In this document: positions 544-13,208 of the stretch, piece after piece
Layout: the number at the start of each line of letters is the position of its first letter
How positions within the stretch are numbered: position 1 is the stretch's first letter
Origin: a virus
Lineage: Duplodnaviria; Heunggongvirae; Uroviricota; Caudoviricetes
Virus record (IMG/VR): IMGVR_UViG_2671180439_000003
Direction: 5' to 3' (one strand)
Length of the DNA: 13,208 bases
Translations under genes and position numbers: made by a program
Notes under the pieces: model-generated
The model's input: the letters and a program-made list of their open reading frames with translations, nothing else
What the model was told of the DNA's origin: nothing
Database searches by the model: none

Positions 544-840
544 TCACCCATCCGAGCATCTGCGTTTCTTCGCGATAGAACGCAGTGAGATACCTATAAC
601 AAAGTGAGCAATGATCAGTTCATATTCTTCTGGTTTATATTTACGCAACCGCACCACACAACCGTCTATCATGATCCCTTCATCATCATCACACTGGAGG
701 CGTGACTTTTTACCGTGTGGTAAAAGCCCCTTGAAGCCTGCCGCGATCGGCTGCCAGTCCACTCCGCTGTTATCTGCTGCTGCCCATGCTCCCCAGCGGT
801 CCAAAACCTCGTACATATCACGCATCAAATCTCTCCACAA
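544..840 (-). CDS. Hypothetical prophage early-operon protein, C-terminally truncated by the IS1 insertion (probable true start is the ATG at 825)
   Basis: ORF ends ...SIAKKRRCSDG with its last codon and TGA stop (546-544) supplied by the IS1 terminal repeat (IS1 boundary at 548). The track start at 840 is TTG; an in-frame ATG with a gagag RBS-like sequence lies at 825-823. Confidence 0.4.
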   Translation of the reverse strand: MWRDLMRDMYEVLDRWGAWAAADNSGVDWQPIAAGFKGLLPHGKKSRLQCDDDEGIMIDGCVVRLRKYKPEEYELIIAHFVIGISLRSIAKKRRCSDG

Positions 841-842
841 AA

Positions 843-1232
843 TCAGGCCAGCACACCAATTGCCAGCGCGCGATCGATAAATCGAAAAATTAGCTCCAGT
901 TGGGAACCATACTTCTCTTCAAATGCCACAGTGTCCACATGCAACTCGTCGTGATGCTTTCTGCACAAAGGCAATACAAAGAGGTCATGCGCTTTTGTAC
1001 CCTGGCGACGCGCCTTACGCGTTAACCAGCCTTCTGCTTCCAGCCGTGCGATAGCCGTTCTGACGGTACTCATCCCCGCGCCAATCTGGCGGGCAATGGT
1101 TTCAATTGATGGCCAGCACACACCTTCGTCATTACTGAAATCAGCCAGGCGGGCCATAATTGCCACACTGGATAATTTCATGCCTGACGCTGCGCAACCA
1201 TCCCATACATAGCCGGTTAATTTAGTGCTCAT
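843..1232 (-). CDS. Phage early-region helix-turn-helix DNA-binding protein (replication-organiser-like N-terminal domain)
   Basis: 129-aa ORF with an HTH-like segment WPSIETIARQIGAGMSTVRTAIARLEAEGWL. Its ATG (1232) overlaps the stop of the upstream gene, as in phage coupled operons. Same strand as the Cro-like gene. Confidence 0.6.
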   Translation of the reverse strand: MSTKLTGYVWDGCAASGMKLSSVAIMARLADFSNDEGVCWPSIETIARQIGAGMSTVRTAIARLEAEGWLTRKARRQGTKAHDLFVLPLCRKHHDELHVDTVAFEEKYGSQLELIFRFIDRALAIGVLA

Positions 1233-1646
1233 GACCGACCTCTATTTCCCTGAATTTACGACGAAACTGTTCGAGCGGGCTGAAGCACTCATGCTCATAG
1301 CCTTCGCGGAGGTAGATAACCCGTTGTGTTTCCGGCTCCCAACGAATGACTCTGACGGGCACTCCGTAGTGATCTTTGAACCAGCGGTTAACTTCTCGCA
1401 AAGGACTGTCTCCTTCTGCCGGTTGAAATCCCCCACAGCCCACTCAGCAAAGCTGTGGGTTACAATTTCCCTGTCACCTGGTACATTCACTGCATAGCAA
1501 TACTCCACCTTCGCTTTTCCACCCGGTACAGGAAGCGCAATCAGTTGCGAGTGACGGTAGTGTGTTGTTATAAACTGTTCATGCGTTAGTTTCTCCACAG
1601 TCACGACACGCCACGGCGCCCGGAGCTGCACACTCGCGGGCGTCAT
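1222..1646 (-). pseudogene. Phage early-operon gene that appears frame-disrupted at a C5/G5 homopolymer (1430-1434); two partial frames (1242-1745 track ORF and 1222-1443) would fuse if the run were G6
   Basis: Frame B reads ...[11 protein letters not shown] and then degenerates into a serine-rich tail. Frame A reads [72 protein letters not shown] and ends with a stop overlapping the next gene's ATG. By hand translation, one extra G in gctgtgggggatttc joins B to A. Confidence 0.35.
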
Positions 1647-2130
1647 TACTTTCTGAAATGCAAAATATTTTGTAGACCAGTGCTGCATGCTCCTGCAGCT
1701 TCGAAATTGAGAGATACAGCTCGTCGTTAATTGCTGTTTTCTCATGCGGTTCCACTACACCGTCTTCAATTGCTGAACGAATCTGTTTTGAATAACTGCC
1801 GATCTGTTCAATGACCTCCAGCAGGCGTTGGTTGATATCGGCGTTGTCCACATCCTCGACATCAGGAAGAGACACAAAGACGCCATTTGCAGACTGCGCC
1901 ACAGCGTCAGCAATGAAGTGAGTTCCACCAGCACGTTGCAAAATCATTGCCCATCCCAGCGGGAAAATCTGATCGCCATCGGCACGAAGGCGGTTAAATA
2001 ATGCGTTCTCTGTTACATCCAGCCAGTCAGCAGCTTCAGCGTACCCCCCCGGCAACGCTGCGATAGTTTTTCTGACAGCTTTCACGTACCACTCAGGCTG
2101 TTTTTCTACTTTCCAGTGATGCTTACCCAC
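1579..2130 (-). CDS. Prophage early protein of unknown function (e14 YmfL-like by position and recollection)
   Basis: 183-aa ORF. GTG start at 2130 is preceded by GGAGG 6 nt upstream and overlaps the Cro-like gene stop by 8 bp. It is second in the leftward early operon. Confidence 0.6.
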
Positions 2131-2383
2131 GGTTCACCTCCTGTTCCTGTGGTTTAAACCCATTCTGGTTTTGGCTAGATTGAAAACGTGCCGGATAAAG
2201 AATCTGCATTTCGCTGACTTCACCCTTAAAAAAATTGGCTAATCGTTCTGCAAGCTCGATAGATGGAATCTGCTCCAGCCTCTCAATACGACTCAACGTC
2301 GCTGGATTGACTTGAACACCCGCAGCAACATGCTGCAAAGTGAAACCATGCGCCTTACGCACATTTCGTAATGGTGATTGCAT
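2123..2383 (-). CDS. Cro-like HTH transcriptional regulator (XRE family)
   Basis: ATG at 2383 preceded by GGAGGG with correct spacing. HTH segment GFTLQHVAAGVQVNPATLSRIE. Divergent from the CI-like repressor across a 97-bp operator-like region. Confidence 0.7.
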   Translation of the reverse strand: MQSPLRNVRKAHGFTLQHVAAGVQVNPATLSRIERLEQIPSIELAERLANFFKGEVSEMQILYPARFQSSQNQNGFKPQEQEVNRG

Positions 2384-2480
2384 ATGCCCTCCAAATATTG
2401 CGCGTTATGCATGTTATTTCACGCAATTATTTTGCGCAAGTTGATTTGCTTATCACGCAATAAAGAAATGTAATAAACGC
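2384..2480. promoter_or_regulatory. Divergent promoter/operator region between the Cro-like and CI-like genes
   Basis: Repeated motif tcacgcaat at 2419-2427 and 2453-2461, palindrome ttgcgcaa at 2432-2439, and related ttgcgcg at 2398-2404. A candidate -35 TTGCTT (2446-2451) and -10 TGTAAT (2469-2474) on the plus strand would place the transcript start at or next to the repressor ATG. Confidence 0.5.
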
Positions 2481-3173
2481 ATGAACATAGGAAACCGAGT
2501 CAGACAACTTCGCCAAGCGAAGAACATGAAAATCGCCGATCTCGCTGAAGCAATAGGAGTAGATGCGGCGAACATCTCGCGCTTAGAAACGGGTAAGCAA
2601 AAACAATTTACCGAACAAACACTGAGTAATATTGCCAAGAGCTTAGGTGTTGATATTGCTGATCTCTTTACCTCTGCCCACAAAAGTAATACTGTATATA
2701 AAAACAGTAATAATGAGGATGTTGCGCAGGTGAAGGATGTGTTCCGTATTGAAATGCTGGATATCAGTGCCAGTGCGGGAAATGGCCTTATCCAGGGCGG
2801 TGATGTCATTGATGTGATTCATGCCATCGAATACAGAACTGATAATGCTGTATCAATGTTCGGCGGACGACCAGCCAATCACATCAAAGTTATCAACGTT
2901 CGTGGGGACAGTATGTGTCCAACCATTGAGCCAGGAGATCTCATCTTCGTTGATATCAGCATCAATCAGTTTGATGGTGATGGTATATATGTCTTTGGTT
3001 TTGATGACAAAATATACGTTAAAAGACTTCAAATGATTCCTGACAAACTGCTGGTGATTTCTGATAACCAGATTTACCGTGAATGGGGAATTACTAGCGA
3101 AAACGAACACCGATTCATGGTCTTTGGAAAGGTCTTAATCAGTCAGTCGCAAACCCTTAAGAGACATAATTAA
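2481..3173 (+). CDS. CI-like phage repressor: N-terminal XRE-type HTH plus C-terminal S24 (LexA/CI-type) autopeptidase domain; resembles e14 CohE
   Basis: 230-aa ORF. HTH MKIADLAEAIGVDAANISRLETGKQ. S24 catalytic serine in VRGDSMCPTIEPGDLIFVD and lysine in KIYVKRLQM. Followed by an intrinsic terminator. Confidence 0.85.
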   Translation: MNIGNRVRQLRQAKNMKIADLAEAIGVDAANISRLETGKQKQFTEQTLSNIAKSLGVDIADLFTSAHKSNTVYKNSNNEDVAQVKDVFRIEMLDISASAGNGLIQGGDVIDVIHAIEYRTDNAVSMFGGRPANHIKVINVRGDSMCPTIEPGDLIFVDISINQFDGDGIYVFGFDDKIYVKRLQMIPDKLLVISDNQIYREWGITSENEHRFMVFGKVLISQSQTLKRHN

Positions 3174-3264: not shown

Positions 3265-3429
3265 TTTAATTTTATCTTTTGTTCCAGACCAACTACAGGA
3301 TTACAACAAAATCTGGTTGCAACACGGTGCATGTGTCGTAAGCAGTCAGTAAATGTCAAAAACGAACAGGCAGGACGCCCACGAAGTAGCCGCCTGGGGC
3401 ATATGAAGTCCAGGATGATTCGTTAGCAA

Positions 3430-3453
3430 CAAAAAAGCGTCCTACAGGACGCT
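3430..3453 (-). terminator. Rho-independent terminator on the minus strand, at the 3' end of the Ag43 remnant ORF
   Basis: Stem agcgtcc/ggacgct (3436-3442 and 3447-3453) with loop taca; on the minus strand it is followed by a T6 run (plus-strand aaaaaa at 3430-3435). Confidence 0.5.
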
Positions 3454-4810
3454 TAGCTCTTTAACAATCTGGTCCCCATCAACAAGTAACTGATAACTTG
3501 AGGAGGTGTGAAATGCACAAAACAGAACCAAAAATCGTCGCGCCCGGATGCCCAGACGGAAGCCGGCACGCACATGTTGTGCACTGCCATGCCCGAACTT
3601 CACATAACCGGCGTTATCCTGGCCGTCATCCAGGGAGAGTCCCTGCCAGGTGTACTGCAGTTGCGGCTCCAGCATCAGATTGTCAGTGATACTGAAGAGC
3701 AGACCGGTTTCCAGTGAGCCCAGCCAGCCCCAGCCCCGGGCGCGGAAGTCGTTATTGTCCGATGACGCTTTCATGCTGTGGCGGGTTCCCTGTGCCACAA
3801 TGTCAGCCCACAGGCCGGAGGACGTGTGTGTCAGATTCAGGTATCCGCCCAGGCTGCCGGCATCATCCCGGACCGTGCCGGCGCGGGAACCGTCATCATC
3901 CTTAACATCAACGGAAGAATGGCCTGCAGCACCATATACCCCTGTCGTCAGAGACATACCGGCAACCTCTGTTCTCAGCAGGTCACCCTCCAGACGGACG
4001 AAGCCATAGCTGCCGCTGCTTTCCGGCGTGGCTCCACGGGCAATACCCCCCATTCAGCGTGGTATCCAGTGCGTGACCATGTACAGTCTGGTCGCCGCCG
4101 GCATAAACCACAGTGGTATTTGCCGTTCCTTCAGCAGCCACAATCTGACGACCATTTTTATTGATGGTGGTGCGTACGGCATCTCCGTAGACGGTCTGCC
4201 CTGTATCACCATTTTCTGCATCCGGTCCCCCTTCCGCGCCGGTATTCACAACCGTGTCGGTTGCCATTGCGCCGGATTTGACGGCCTGCCAGCCCTTCTC
4301 ATTAATGACGGTACCCGTTGCAATCCCGCCTTCATGTACCCACTGCTCACCGCCGTTCAGAGTGGTATTCACTGCCTGCCCCTGAAGGCTCTGTCCGCCT
4401 CCGGCACTGATAACCGTGTCTGAAACGCTTCCTCCGGCATTCACTCTCTGAAGACCACCACCGGTGACAGTAGTGTTGTTGGCGGTACCGCCATTTTGTA
4501 TCCATTGGCCGCCGGTATTCGCCTCGTTATCCGGCCCATACTCCAGCCCGGTACTGATGGTCATTCCGTTGGCCGTACCGAGAACAATCTGGTTGTCATG
4601 ATTTGTCAGTGTTCCGCCGCTCACGGTTTCTCCCGCCTGTACGACCGTGTCAGCAGCCAGTGCCGGGACTGATGTGACAGCAGCAAGAGACAGCACAATC
4701 GCCACACCGGCGCATTTTCCCCGTGAGCGGGCCAGTTCGGAAGCCACCACCAGGGTGCCCGTAATGTGATTCCATACCAGCCTGTAGCTGGTGTTCAGAT
4801 GTCGTTTCAT
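3442..4810 (-). pseudogene. flu: Antigen 43 (Ag43) self-associating autotransporter gene, disrupted: N-terminal passenger part, internal deletion/frameshift near 4046-4051, and 3' truncation of the beta-barrel domain
   Basis: N-terminal ORF begins MKRHLNTSYRLVWNHITG... with a long autotransporter signal peptide, then ...AADTVVQAGETVSGG... repeats; ATG at 4810 has an AGGA RBS. The second ORF in another frame contains ...GGIARGATPESSGSYGFVRLEGD...YVKFGHGSAQHVRAGFRLG, then non-barrel sequence with no C-terminal aromatic residue. Total about 1.37 kb, against roughly 3.1 kb recalled for intact flu. Confidence 0.85.
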
Positions 4811-5019
4811 CAGCTTTTCCTTACAGAGGGTGAATAAAAAAGCCGGTACCCACAAATGTGGATACCGGCAGGTACAAAACAGCATGGTCAGATAAAGTGG
4901 TTTTTCCCGGACATAAATGCTTCCCCTCTCTCATCCGCCAGAGAAGTATCAGTCCGTTGTGTGCAATTCCGTTCTGCATGATGAAGAGATTCAACTGCCT
5001 TTTCGCAGGCCATTAACCA

Positions 5020-5070
5020 CTATAAACGATCGATAGCAACGATCGATACCTGTTTTATCGATCGTTTTAT
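5020..5070 (-). promoter_or_regulatory. agn43 phase-variation switch region: three clustered Dam GATC sites (OxyR-binding region)
   Basis: GATC at 5028-5031, 5041-5044 and 5060-5063 within aaacgatcgatagcaacgatcgatacctgttttatcgatcg, about 220-250 bp upstream of the flu start codon on the same strand. Confidence 0.75.
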
Positions 5071-5182
5071 TCTATTGATTGCAAGGCGGTCACGCAAGAG
5101 AAACAGGAGGAGCATGAGGTGTTTGTGTCATGTTTTCAGTTGGTTAACGCAATGTAATCAGGCATTTCCCCTGGCAGACTGT

Positions 5183-6055
5183 TCAGAAGAAAATCCAGTT
5201 CCATACAGCGCGGGCAACAGAGACCACCGAGTCACGGACGGCACGCAGAACCGTGCGTGCAACAGAGGCAATACAGACGCTCTCCGCCGTGTCAAATATC
5301 CGGTCCACCGCACCGGTAAACTGTTCACGGGCCTGAGACCGGACAGATTCCGTGCGCAGCTCGTCCTGCAGGCGGGTCATCAGGGGACTGGTGGCATGGT
5401 CGGGAAGCGCCGTCATGAGCGCACTGACCAGCGTATCCAGTTCCCAGCCGGTGCGGGCCGATACGGCAACAACCGGATGTACGGGCCGGAACAGACGGAA
5501 TACCGCATCTGTTTTCTCACGAATATTCTGTGCCTGTGCGGGAGAAGGCTGAATGCCGGCCATATCCCATTCATGGCAGGGCTCCGTTTTGTCGGCCTGC
5601 GTCACCACAAACAGCACCTGCTGATGTCCCCGGTGCAGGATGTGTCGCCAGAAATACTCATCCACAGACAGGGCACGGTCATCGGCTTTAATCAGCCACA
5701 GTACCAGGTCAAGTTCAGGCAGAATGTCACGGTACAGGGCTTCATACTCTGCATCCCTGTCCCGGCTCTCGCCCACCCCGGGCAGGTCAGTGATAATCAT
5801 GCTGTGACCGTGGCCACTCAGACGGAAGCGCCGCACTTCCCGGGTGCCGGCGTGAACATCACTGACCGGGGTGACCTCCCCCTGAAACAGTGCATTACAG
5901 AGTGAGGATTTACCGGCCCCGCTTTTACCCATAATGCCAATCACGGGTTCGTGACTGGTGAGTTTACGCAGATGTTCCAGGATGTGACGGGAAAGTGAGT
6001 AAGGCAGGGAAGAAAGTGGTTTTTCAATTGCCTCAATGGCATCAGACGGATTCAT
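5183..6055 (-). CDS. yeeP: YeeP/YkfA/YfjP-family GTPase of unknown function (CP4-type island gene upstream of flu)
   Basis: P-loop GIMGKSGAGKSS, DLPG (G3) and TQAD (G4-like) motifs. Positioned immediately upstream of Ag43 on the same strand, as in CP4-44. Start assigned to the ATG at 6055; the track ORF extends to a non-ATG start at 6094. Confidence 0.75.
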   Translation of the reverse strand: MNPSDAIEAIEKPLSSLPYSLSRHILEHLRKLTSHEPVIGIMGKSGAGKSSLCNALFQGEVTPVSDVHAGTREVRRFRLSGHGHSMIITDLPGVGESRDRDAEYEALYRDILPELDLVLWLIKADDRALSVDEYFWRHILHRGHQQVLFVVTQADKTEPCHEWDMAGIQPSPAQAQNIREKTDAVFRLFRPVHPVVAVSARTGWELDTLVSALMTALPDHATSPLMTRLQDELRTESVRSQAREQFTGAVDRIFDTAESVCIASVARTVLRAVRDSVVSVARAVWNWIFF

Positions 6056-6108: not shown

Positions 6109-6318
6109 GGGATTCACGGAGATAATATCTGTCTGAAATTATTTAGAATGCACCTGGTGCACTGCAAAGGAAAGGCAATATTCCGTTCCTCCTCCTTGTC
6201 GTGAATACCCCAGGTATCTCACAATATACACCGACTTACTCCGGGGCTGCCTGAACCACAAGATTGCTGTAGAATTGCCCCCAATGATTCAGGTCCAAAC
6301 CAGGCAAATGGATTAAAA

Positions 6319-7875
6319 ATGACAAGTATTCAACAACGAGCAGAACTGCACCGCCAGATATGGCAAATTGCCAATGATGTCAGAGGTTCTGTTGACGGAT
6401 GGGATTTTAAGCAATACGTTCTGGGCGCGCTTTTCTACCGTTTTATCAGCGAAAATTTTTCCAGCTATATTGAAGCCGGTGATGACAGTATCTGTTATGC
6501 GAAACTGGATGACAGCGTAATTACTGATGACATTAAAGACGATGCCATCAAAACTAAAGGCTACTTCATCTACCCAAGTCAGCTTTTCTGCAACGTAGCT
6601 GCGAAAGCAAATACCAATGACAGACTGAATGCAGATTTAAACAGTATCTTCGTTGCTATCGAAAGTTCTGCTTACGGTTACCCTTCAGAAGCTGACATCA
6701 AAGGTTTGTTTGCTGATTTCGATACCACCAGTAACCGCCTGGGTAACACCGTTAAGGATAAAAATGCCCGCCTGGCTGCGGTTCTGAAAGGGGTTGAAGG
6801 GTTAAAGCTTGGCGACTTTAACGAACATCAGATTGACCTGTTCGGCGATGCCTATGAGTTCCTGATTTCTAACTATGCGGCGAATGCTGGTAAGTCAGGC
6901 GGCGAGTTCTTTACACCGCAGCACGTCTCCAGGCTGATTGCACAACTGGCAATGCACGGCCAGACCCACGTTAACAAAATCTACGACCCGGCAGCAGGTT
7001 CCGGTTCGCTGTTGTTGCAGGCTAAAAAACAGTTTGATGACCATATCATCGAAGAAGGTTTTTTTGGTCAGGAAATCAACCATACGACCTATAACCTGGC
7101 GCGTATGAACATGTTTTTGCACAACATCAACTACGACAAGTTTGATATCAAGTTGGGCAATACGCTGACTGAGCCGCACTTCAGAGATGAAAAACCGTTT
7201 GATGCCATCGTTTCTAACCCGCCGTATTCGGTGAAATGGATTGGCAGCGATGACCCGACGCTGATTAACGATGAACGTTTTGCCCCGGCTGGCGTTCTGG
7301 CCCCCAAATCCAAAGCTGACTTCGCGTTTGTATTACATGCGCTGAACTATCTTTCGGCCAAAGGTCGTGCTGCGATTGTCTGCTTCCCGGGTATTTTTTA
7401 CCGTGGCGGCGCGGAGCAGAAAATCCGTCAGTATCTGGTCGATAATAACTATGTCGAAACCGTGATTTCACTGGCACCGAACCTGTTCTTTGGCACCACC
7501 ATTGCCGTAAACATTCTGGTGCTGTCTAAACATAAAACGGATACCAAAGTTCAGTTTATTGACGCCAGCGAACTGTTCAAAAAAGAGACTAACAACAATA
7601 TCCTGACCGATGCCCATATCGAACAGATTATGCAGGTATTTGCCAGCAAGGAAGATGTTGCTCATCTGGCGAAATCTGTCACGTTTGAGACCGTTGTCGC
7701 GAATGACTATAACCTGTCGGTAAGCAGCTATGTGGAAGCGAAAGATAACCGCGAAATTATCGATATCGGTGAGCTGAATGCTGAGCTGAAAACCACGGTC
7801 AGCAAAATCGACCAGTTGCGCAAAGATATTGATGCGATTGTGGCTGAAATTGAAGGCTGCGAGGTGCAGAAATGA
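6319..7875 (+). CDS. hsdM: Type I restriction-modification system methyltransferase subunit HsdM (N6-adenine MTase)
   Basis: 518-aa ORF. N-terminal HsdM domain ([34 protein letters not shown]), AdoMet motif [11 protein letters not shown], catalytic motif IV NPPYS. Stop overlaps hsdS start (ATGA at 7872-7875). Confidence 0.95.
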
Positions 7876-9098
7876 GCGAGTTGAGTTATCTGGAAAAATT
7901 GCTGGATGGGGTTGAGGTTGAGTGGTTGCCATTGGGGGAAGTCTCAGCCTTAAGAAGAGGCAGAGTTATGTCAAAGGGATATTTAACTGAAAATTTTGGC
8001 CCATATCCTGTCTATAGCTCTCAAACTGCAAATAATGGGAAAATAGGTTCTATCAATACCTTCGATTTTGATGGCGAATATATAAGCTGGACAACAGATG
8101 GCGCAAATGCAGGCACTATGTTCTATCGAACAGGTAAATTTTCAATAACTAATGTTTGCGGCCTGATTACATTAAAAAGTAAATACTCATTAATCTACAA
8201 ATTTCTGTTTTACTGGCTAACAATAGAAGCCAAAAAACATGTTTACTCAGGAATGGGAAACCCCAAGTTAATGAGTCATCAGGTTGAAAATATACCTGTA
8301 CCAATCCCCTGCCCGGATAATCCGGAAAAATCCCTCGCCATCCAGTCTGAAATCGTTCGGATTCTGGACACATTCAGCGCCCTGACAGCAGAACTGACAG
8401 CAGAACTGACAGCAGAGCTTAACATGCGTAAAAAACAATACAACTACTATCGCGACCAGTTGTTGAGTTTTAATACCGAAGATGTTCCACATTTACCTAT
8501 GGGACAAAAAGATATTGGCGAGTTTATCCGGGGTGGTACTTTTCAGAAAAAAGACTTTATAGATGCAGGTGTAGGGTGCATACACTATGGTCAAATCTAT
8601 ACGTATTACGGAACATATACAGAAAAAACAAAAACATATATTTCAACCGCACTTGCAAAAAAATGCAAGAAGGCTCAAAAGGGAGATTTGATTATCGCAA
8701 CTACTAGTGAGAATGATGAGGATGTATGTAAAGCTGTTGCATGGTTAGGCAGTGAAGATATAGCAGTAAGCAGTGATGCCTGTATTTACAAACATAATTT
8801 AAACCCTAAGTATGTCTCATATTTTTTTCAAACAGAACAATTCCAAAATCAAAAAAGACAGTATATTACTGGCGCAAAAGTTCGGCGTGTAAATGCTGAT
8901 AATTTATCTAAGATATTAATTCCAGTTCCTTCTATGGAGATACAGGAACGTATAGTATCCATTCTCGATAAATTCGACACCCTGACAAACTCCATCACTG
9001 AAGGTCTTCCGCGTGAAATCGAGTTGCGCCAGAAACAATACGAATACTACCGTGATTTACTGTTCAGTTTCCCGAAACCTGAAACTGCCAGTAATTAA
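7872..9098 (+). CDS. hsdS: Type I R-M specificity subunit HsdS, type IC (EcoR124 family) architecture with two target-recognition domains and a central TAEL-repeat region
   Basis: 408-aa ORF. Conserved N-terminus [23 protein letters not shown], central [58 protein letters not shown]-terminal [40 protein letters not shown]. Two visibly AT-rich variable segments between the conserved blocks. Confidence 0.95.
8385..8420 (+). repeat. Tandem 12-bp repeat (acagcagaactg twice, then acagcagagctt) encoding [12 protein letters not shown] in the HsdS central conserved region
   Basis: Read directly: in-frame copies at 8385-8396, 8397-8408 and 8409-8420; the third has two synonymous changes. Confidence 0.9.
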
Positions 9099-9219
9099 TT
9101 GAGCATTGCTACCGATCGGACCACCTTAACACCCGGTCAGTATATAGACTATTTTTTACGCGCCGGAAGTCACTCTTAACGCCCTTCCGGCTCTTGCCAG
9201 GCGGCACAAAGGATGCGCT

Positions 9220-12336: not shown

Positions 12337-13208
<872 letters not shown>

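Follow-up and report, generated by a model that had tools for sequence, protein, structure and literature searches.

The window (the whole 13,208-nucleotide stretch of DNA analysed here, IMG/VR record IMGVR_UViG_2671180439_000003) carries on its minus strand a gene of the Ag43/Cah family, agn43, with its ATG at 4810. The frame from this ATG begins MKRHLNTSYRLVWNH and reaches ...HGHALDTTLNGGY, after which 19 out-of-frame residues lead to a TGA; a second frame, GGIARGATPESS... / GGIARGATPESSGSYGFVRLEG..., runs in a different register down to about 3550. As reference we used the intact 949-codon allele of E. coli 19SZHZ713Rt (NZ_CP080070.1, locus L002, CDS 6291-9137; 949-aa protein WP_157700656.1), which agrees with the window in its upstream GTPase gene, its leader and its switch of three GATC sites. 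The features of the region are:

2481..3173, plus strand: repressor of the XRE family (cI-like); in the prophage remnant joined to agn43 it is the first gene
3442..4053, minus strand: a mechanical ORF of 203 aa (MGGIARG...), whose ATG is made by the aATG of the left flank; not regarded as a gene
3546..3556, minus strand: second junction, where Ag43 homology stops (...CGTCTGGGCA) and lambdoid prophage homology starts (...GGCGCGACGATTTTTGG)
3550..4047, minus strand: agn43 3' segment, CDS nt 2005 to about 2552, 99.6% identical to the reference and out of frame with the 5' segment; it encodes the first two-thirds of the β-barrel translocator
3983..3985, minus strand: premature TGA closing the frameshifted N-terminal ORF (256 native and 19 out-of-frame residues)
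4044..4047, minus strand: deletion junction with one kept copy of GGTA, placed by base-by-base comparison with both parental sites
4044..4810, minus strand: agn43 5' segment, CDS nt 1-767 (residues 1-256), 99.4% identical to and collinear with the reference; it encodes the ESPR signal peptide and, after it, the β-helical passenger up to about its 205th residue
4046..4051, minus strand: G6 homopolymer, read as C6 on the plus strand and already present in the left flank of intact alleles
4829..5065, minus strand: leader/sRNA region, matching the Rfam IS102 RNA at 73.7 bits (gathering score 46)
5028..5063, minus strand: phase-variation switch region with three GATC sites (5028-5031, 5041-5044, 5060-5063) in 36 bp, intact in the window
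5183..6055, minus strand: gene of the YeeP-like GTPase family, which in CP4-44-type islands usually lies next to agn43 on its upstream side

Pfam searches identify an ESPR (PF13018, residues 6-50) and AIDA repeats (PF16168) in the N-terminal ORF, that is, the signal peptide and an AIDA-type β-helical passenger of which only about the first 205 residues are left. The C-terminal ORF matches PF03797 over profile positions 22-181 of 255 only, the remainder being prophage-derived sequence, and a complete C-terminal β-barrel translocator is absent. In the intact allele the autochaperone domain AC_1 (PF18883) occupies residues 488-599 and PF03797 begins at residue 673; Pfam finds no AC_1 in either window ORF, and this domain falls inside the deleted interval. 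The NCBIfam equivalog profile for Ag43/Cah, NF033177 (948 positions), is matched over positions 1-257 by the N-terminal ORF (510.6 bits) and over positions 668-836 by the C-terminal ORF (399.4 bits), as against 1981 bits for the intact reference protein, and neither fragment gives a full-length match above the curated cutoff of 1200 bits over 948 positions. Judged by its domain content, the window thus holds the remnant of a member of the Ag43/Cah family and not a functional member. The product of the 203-aa ORF would be a barrel fragment without a signal peptide, running into prophage-derived sequence.

A megablast comparison of window positions 3300-5100 with 5,426 complete E. coli genomes recovers intact Ag43/Cah alleles at 98-99.5% identity, in matches that come as two pieces and together span 2,796 bp. 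Against the reference there is no continuous collinearity: the match breaks after CDS nt 767 and resumes at nt 2005, with 99.4-99.6% identity on the two sides. The missing segment measures 1,241 bp (1241 mod 3 = 2), which puts the two parts out of frame; relative to the intact 949-aa type, CDS nt 768-2004 and all sequence beyond nt ~2552 are missing from the window, and the gene is frameshifted. A preliminary description of this DNA, made from the sequence alone, had placed an internal deletion of Ag43 at this position and sequence, with a plus-strand C6 at 4046-4051, a loss of well over 1 kb and two frames meeting out of frame at the G6 tract. The alignments and the NF033177 and Pfam matches bear all of this out.

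On the minus strand the junction reads ...acgctgaatggggggtattgcc..., and the two frames meet at acgctgaatGGGGGGTAttgcc. The left parental site, GGGGGGTACC, is GGTACC at CDS nt 764, and the right one, GGCGGTATTGCC, is GGTATT at nt 2005. Read as codons, the left parent is CTG AAT GGG GGG TAC CAG (LNGGYQ) and the right parent AAC AAC GGC GGT ATT GCC (NNGGIA), so that N-G-G is indeed encoded on both flanks, as had been pointed out. The sole exact sequence common to the two sites is GGTA (nt 764-767 and nt 2005-2008), with six of seven positions agreeing if it is taken as GGnGGTA; beyond it the flanks have no extended similarity. The junction is thus that of a short-homology deletion, in which a direct repeat is present at both parental sites and a single copy is retained; microhomology of at least 4 nt is found in only about 2.2% of simulated random deletions in agn43. 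The right breakpoint falls where the autotransporter β-domain begins, at residue ~668 of the 949. Given the positions of AC_1 and PF03797 in the intact protein, the deletion takes out the distal part of the passenger together with the autochaperone and the linker. The lost stretch had been described as passenger domain, and the rest of the passenger is gone; the autochaperone and linker have been lost with it, however, and the right end lies in the β-domain.

The preliminary description missed a second lesion at the 3' end of the gene. Ag43 homology stops at ~3546-3549, at position 836 of 948 of the NF033177 profile, and from 3556 downwards the window matches, at 96.6% identity, a lambdoid prophage early region that includes the XRE/cI-like repressor, an HTH protein, ymfL and others. 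The barrel is cut at about codon 850 of 949, and the last ~100 codons are lost. At this second junction the window has ATCCG where both parents have AGCCA; the junction is illegitimate, and the fusion point lies just upstream of the cI-like XRE repressor. Downstream of agn43 the window thus has prophage DNA, whereas NZ_CP080070.1 has DUF905, DUF932 and antirestriction genes.

The same double lesion is present in E. coli PCN061 and CH4784, which are 99.8-99.9% identical to the window over 11-13 kb of context and share its neighbourhood of hsdRMS, YeeP-like GTPase, prophage remnant with XRE repressor and ymfL, and IS1A. These are the only two of the 5,426 complete genomes in which the junction aligns as one piece. 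RefSeq already lists the remnant as pseudogenes PCN061_RS27395 (NZ_CP006636.1), corresponding to window 4810..3550, and ACUZ7U_RS17455 (NZ_CM166352.1), both with the two junctions and flanking genes of the window and with the PGAP call 'autotransporter domain-containing protein; frameshifted; incomplete; missing C-terminus'. The occurrence of the allele in PCN061 and CH4784 indicates that it is real, inherited within one lineage and already catalogued. An assembly artefact was considered and rejected, because the identical junction is present in two independent complete genomes in addition to the window. The window differs from these two pseudogenes by 10-14 SNPs. It alone differs, PCN061 and CH4784 being the same, at 1571-1572, 3698, 5392, 1738, 322, 287 and 263; among them are a 2-bp insertion (TA) shortly downstream of ymfL and a Pro-to-Leu substitution in what is left of the barrel. 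As the window differs from both relatives, its source is a third isolate within this lineage.

The region upstream of the gene is preserved. The leader that matches the IS102 RNA is the region annotated as IsrC in K-12, where isrC lies upstream of flu, and the three GATC sites are situated ~220-250 nt upstream of the ATG at 4810. The GATC switch of agn43 is governed by Dam and OxyR. The predicted Dam/OxyR switch of the window, its sites intact, is now in control of a dead gene. The middle GATC (5041-5044) is intact in the window and CH4784, while in PCN061 a G->T change at 5044 turns GATC into TATC, and this loss suggests that the switch is decaying in a lineage in which the gene is already dead.

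The restriction-modification system adjoining agn43 is of type I (hsdRMS). Its hsdS gene (plus strand, 7872-9098) contains three tandem 12-bp repeats in the HsdS central region (window 8385-8420). The window and CH4784 have three copies of this TAEL repeat and PCN061 has two, through a 12-bp deletion at 8405-8416; PCN061 thus departs from the window both in this repeat and in the middle GATC. In type IC systems (EcoR124I versus EcoR124/3) an increase from two to three TAEL copies lengthens the recognition spacer by 1 bp. By analogy, these near-identical strains probably differ in type I restriction-modification specificity. Both ends of the window lie in mobile-element sequence, namely part of an IS1A at 1-505 and the transposase ORF of an ISKpn26-like IS5-family element at 12484-13206. 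The IS1A abuts a truncated fdeC in CH4784 versus ykgL in PCN061, from which it appears that the locus has been rearranged differently in each.

The tract at the junction deserves separate treatment, since slippage in it had been put forward as a cause of the lesion. That proposal fails, as intact alleles have the same G6. Of the three carriers, the window and PCN061 have G6 and CH4784 (locus L007, ~9095) has G7, which may reflect real slippage or a homopolymer sequencing error. With G6 the frame stops at codon 276 and with G7 at codon 279, while G5 or G8 would bring the two parts into frame. It could be argued from the difference in length between carriers, and from the in-frame fusion at G5 or G8, that the tract is a phase-variable contingency homopolymer whose slippage turns a shortened Ag43 on and off. 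However, both observed lengths are out of frame, so that no tract-length variants toggle a functional ORF; the G7 that supplies the variation may itself be the sequencing error; and in intact alleles, which have G6, any change in length would be inactivating. Even an in-frame G5 or G8 product would lack the autochaperone and the last ~74 of the 255 barrel profile positions and end in prophage-derived sequence, which implies that the tract is not a working contingency switch. We give this reading next to no credence.

Among known relatives, flu of K-12 (b2000), in the CP4-44 cryptic prophage, belongs to the same family and has the gene order yeeP, isrC, flu. The retained 5' and 3' parts of agn43 in the window are 87.7% and 95.5% identical to it, but flu is intact and longer (1039 aa), and its nt 764 site is GGATACC and not GGTACC. 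Internally deleted alleles with short-homology junctions like that of the window include the pseudogene of the O104:H4 outbreak lineage (1,088-bp deletion) and the alleles of OW848980.1 (935 bp) and NT1N31 (919 bp). Published Ag43 surveys leave out pseudogenes and truncated sequences (PMC6668479, PMC10058404), and we found no description of agn43 deletion junctions in the literature. We searched the 5,426 complete E. coli genomes with a split query made of CDS nt 1-700 and nt 2002-2550, which ranks internally deleted alleles above intact ones. This recovered about 50 genomes in at least 15 structural classes; an equivalent query from K-12 flu returned the same allele set and no new classes. 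A metagenome scan for other junctions at nt 764, using the pattern ACCACGCTGAATGGGGGRTAD, turned up no Ag43 contig, its one hit being unrelated and due to chance.

Junctions of the short-homology type also occur in no fewer than 14 other agn43 alleles, each deleted independently. We mapped 16 internal deletion junctions, and two more, joining agn43 to an antirestriction gene, were found afterwards. Breakpoints recur in different combinations: nt ~496 is a left end four times, in strains 035152, SW4848 and GN4751 and isolate 3702594, nt 1698-1703 is used four times and nt 2005 three times. Three deletions have their left end at nt 764-767 and run to nt 2005 in the window, to nt 1698 in OW848980.1 and to K-12 nt 1851 in the O104:H4 lineage; their differing right breakpoints indicate independent events. 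The 949-type gene has four canonical GGTACC sites (at nt 496 in most alleles, and at nt 764, 901 and 1820), and every one of them serves as a breakpoint. The junctions compare with expectation as follows, for a motif that was chosen post hoc and a small sample (16-18 junctions):

Junction touching GGTACC: 7 of 16; expected 2.6% if uniform and 4.6% given microhomology of at least 4 nt; binomial P 8e-8 and 3e-6
Junction on GGTA/GGATA: 10 of 16; expected 2.6% if uniform and 7.6% given microhomology of at least 4 nt; binomial P 1e-12 and 3e-8

Five to six junctions have no GGTA-type motif, and the one at locus L016, with zero microhomology, still ends at GG|TACC. For this post hoc motif and these 16 junctions, the availability of microhomology does not explain the reuse of GGTA/GGATA. 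The two additional deletions (L020, ~2205; L012, ~4011) begin within agn43 and end in the antirestriction gene, which lies ~1.5 kb downstream. One of them joins GGCGGATA|CC to GGTGGTA|TCTGG (GGATA|CC x GGTA|TC), and the other falls at TAAC. The GGTA-type junction in the antirestriction gene suggests that the breakpoint preference is not confined to agn43 sequence.

In-frame internal deletions of 1,038 bp and 1,299 bp are present at L015 (1501-3309) and L016 (1501-3048), and these, together with L018 (1501-3027), carry annotations as intact but short proteins (602, 515 and 508 aa respectively), the 602-aa form occurring in at least eight complete genomes. From their sequences they may be functional mini-Ag43 variants without most of the passenger. 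The window allele is out of frame and has no autochaperone domain, and for it we rejected the possibility of a natural short Ag43 variant. E. coli FY26 (NZ_CP101741.1; L004, 727-5813) has a head-to-tail partial duplication of agn43, in which the join (~3321) connects K-12 flu nt 1-2595 to nt 627-3120 and has no GGTA motif.

We conclude that the window very probably contains what is left of a dead Ag43/Cah autotransporter adhesin gene of the 949-aa type, destroyed by two illegitimate-recombination events. The structure, breakpoints, microhomology, frameshift and inheritance in one lineage were directly observed. The internal deletion joined nt 767 to nt 2005 via the GGTA direct repeat, with one copy kept, the partners being the passenger GGTACC that ends the native G6 tract and the GGTATT at the start of the β-barrel domain. 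It removed residues ~257-667, comprising most of the β-helix, the autochaperone and the linker, and shifted the frame to a stop 19 codons on; the fusion to the lambdoid prophage remnant cost the barrel its last ~100 codons. Without a barrel, the product is predicted not to be exportable and hence to be non-functional. For the internal deletion we infer a RecA-independent short-homology mechanism, either replication slippage or a break followed by microhomology-mediated rejoining.

Spontaneous deletions in lacI, in the 1982 work of Albertini, Hofer, Calos and Miller, reportedly also arose between short direct repeats with one copy retained, and the extent of homology is said to predict the hotspots of that spectrum. 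The agn43 deletions are unlike those of lacI in using GGTA-type sites of 4-7 nt over available repeats of 9-12 nt. In the window a perfect 12-nt repeat, ACAACGGCGGTA (nt 779-790 and 1997-2008), begins 12 nt downstream of the left breakpoint and went unused, although the homology-length rule would favour it; this counts against the explanation just given. It also counts against homologous, RecA-type unequal recombination between N-G-G-encoding passenger repeats, an idea which the preliminary description had favoured and which draws on the N-G-G of both flanks and on the construction of the passenger from ~19-residue repeats. RecA-mediated recombination needs far more than 4 nt of identity. Here the exact identity is 4 nt between flanks of no extended similarity, one end lies in the β-domain and not in a passenger repeat, and the longest repeats available were passed over, so that recombination between passenger repeats does not fit and is very improbable. 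The preliminary description was therefore right in what it observed, and its interpretation is supported in part.

The short-homology reading of a single deletion has also to be set against one in two successive steps, namely a deletion of 935 bp (nt 767 to 1698, as in OW848980.1) and an in-frame one of 306 bp (nt 1703 to 2005, as in PEC145). As 935 + 306 equals 1241 exactly, the window junction could equally be the sum of the two; their combined junctions reproduce the window sequence GGGGGGTATTGCC, and each component, both using GGGTAT at nt 1698-1703, is found separately in other strains. Yet PCN061, CH4784 and the window all have the full deletion, with no intermediate among them, and a single event is more parsimonious, so we consider the two-step course unlikely. 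Somewhat less improbable, though still doubtful, is a site-specific break, in which a nuclease for GGTACC-like sites cut at nt 764, and possibly at a related site too, and the ends were rejoined through GTA(C/T) overhang homology. R.KpnI recognizes GGTAC^C, and candidates for such a nuclease are a KpnI-family enzyme acting when its restriction-modification system is acquired or lost, or the promiscuous activity of such an enzyme. Such a break would account for the use of every GGTACC site (that at nt 496 in four alleles, nt 764-767 in three), for the excess of junctions touching GGTACC or lying on GGTA/GGATA, and for the L016 junction that ends exactly at GG|TACC without microhomology. It is also in keeping with the non-canonical breakpoints: with Mg2+, R.KpnI cuts GaTACC and GGTAtC relatively well compared with other sites carrying one substitution (PMC1885652). 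These same variants are the non-canonical breakpoints in agn43, and one junction of the GaTACC x GGTAtC type has its far end in the adjacent antirestriction gene; it is thus conceivable that a restriction-type break came first and microhomology joining after it. Against this stand the choice of the motif after the data had been seen, the number of junctions (16-18), the five to six without the motif and the several partner sites that differ from GGTACC at 2-3 positions, and replication slippage with an unexplained sequence preference fits the data too. To our knowledge, none of the gyrase or topoisomerase I consensus, IS target, REP/RAYT or integron secondary sites fits the GGTA preference.

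The feature in the window is, then, an ordinary pseudogene for which two public genomes already have an annotation, and the only unexpected result is that independent agn43 deletions reuse GGTACC-like breakpoints. We tentatively suggest that agn43 deletions, including at least one that reaches into the antirestriction gene, form preferentially at GGTACC and its close variants GaTACC, GGTAtC and GGTAtt, implying a sequence-specific break or some other site-specific step that is followed by microhomology joining. A candidate agent would be self-restriction by a KpnI-like promiscuous endonuclease, in which case the junction of the window would be a hotspot hit three times independently. The allele is to be taken as null in studies of aggregation and biofilm formation in its lineage, and by itself it changes nothing. 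If the clustering at GGTACC-like sites is true, the junctions of pseudogenes found in nature would preserve the record of an activity that breaks DNA sequence-specifically in E. coli populations, perhaps that of restriction enzymes turned on their own host, which would explain the repeated loss and shortening of a common surface antigen.
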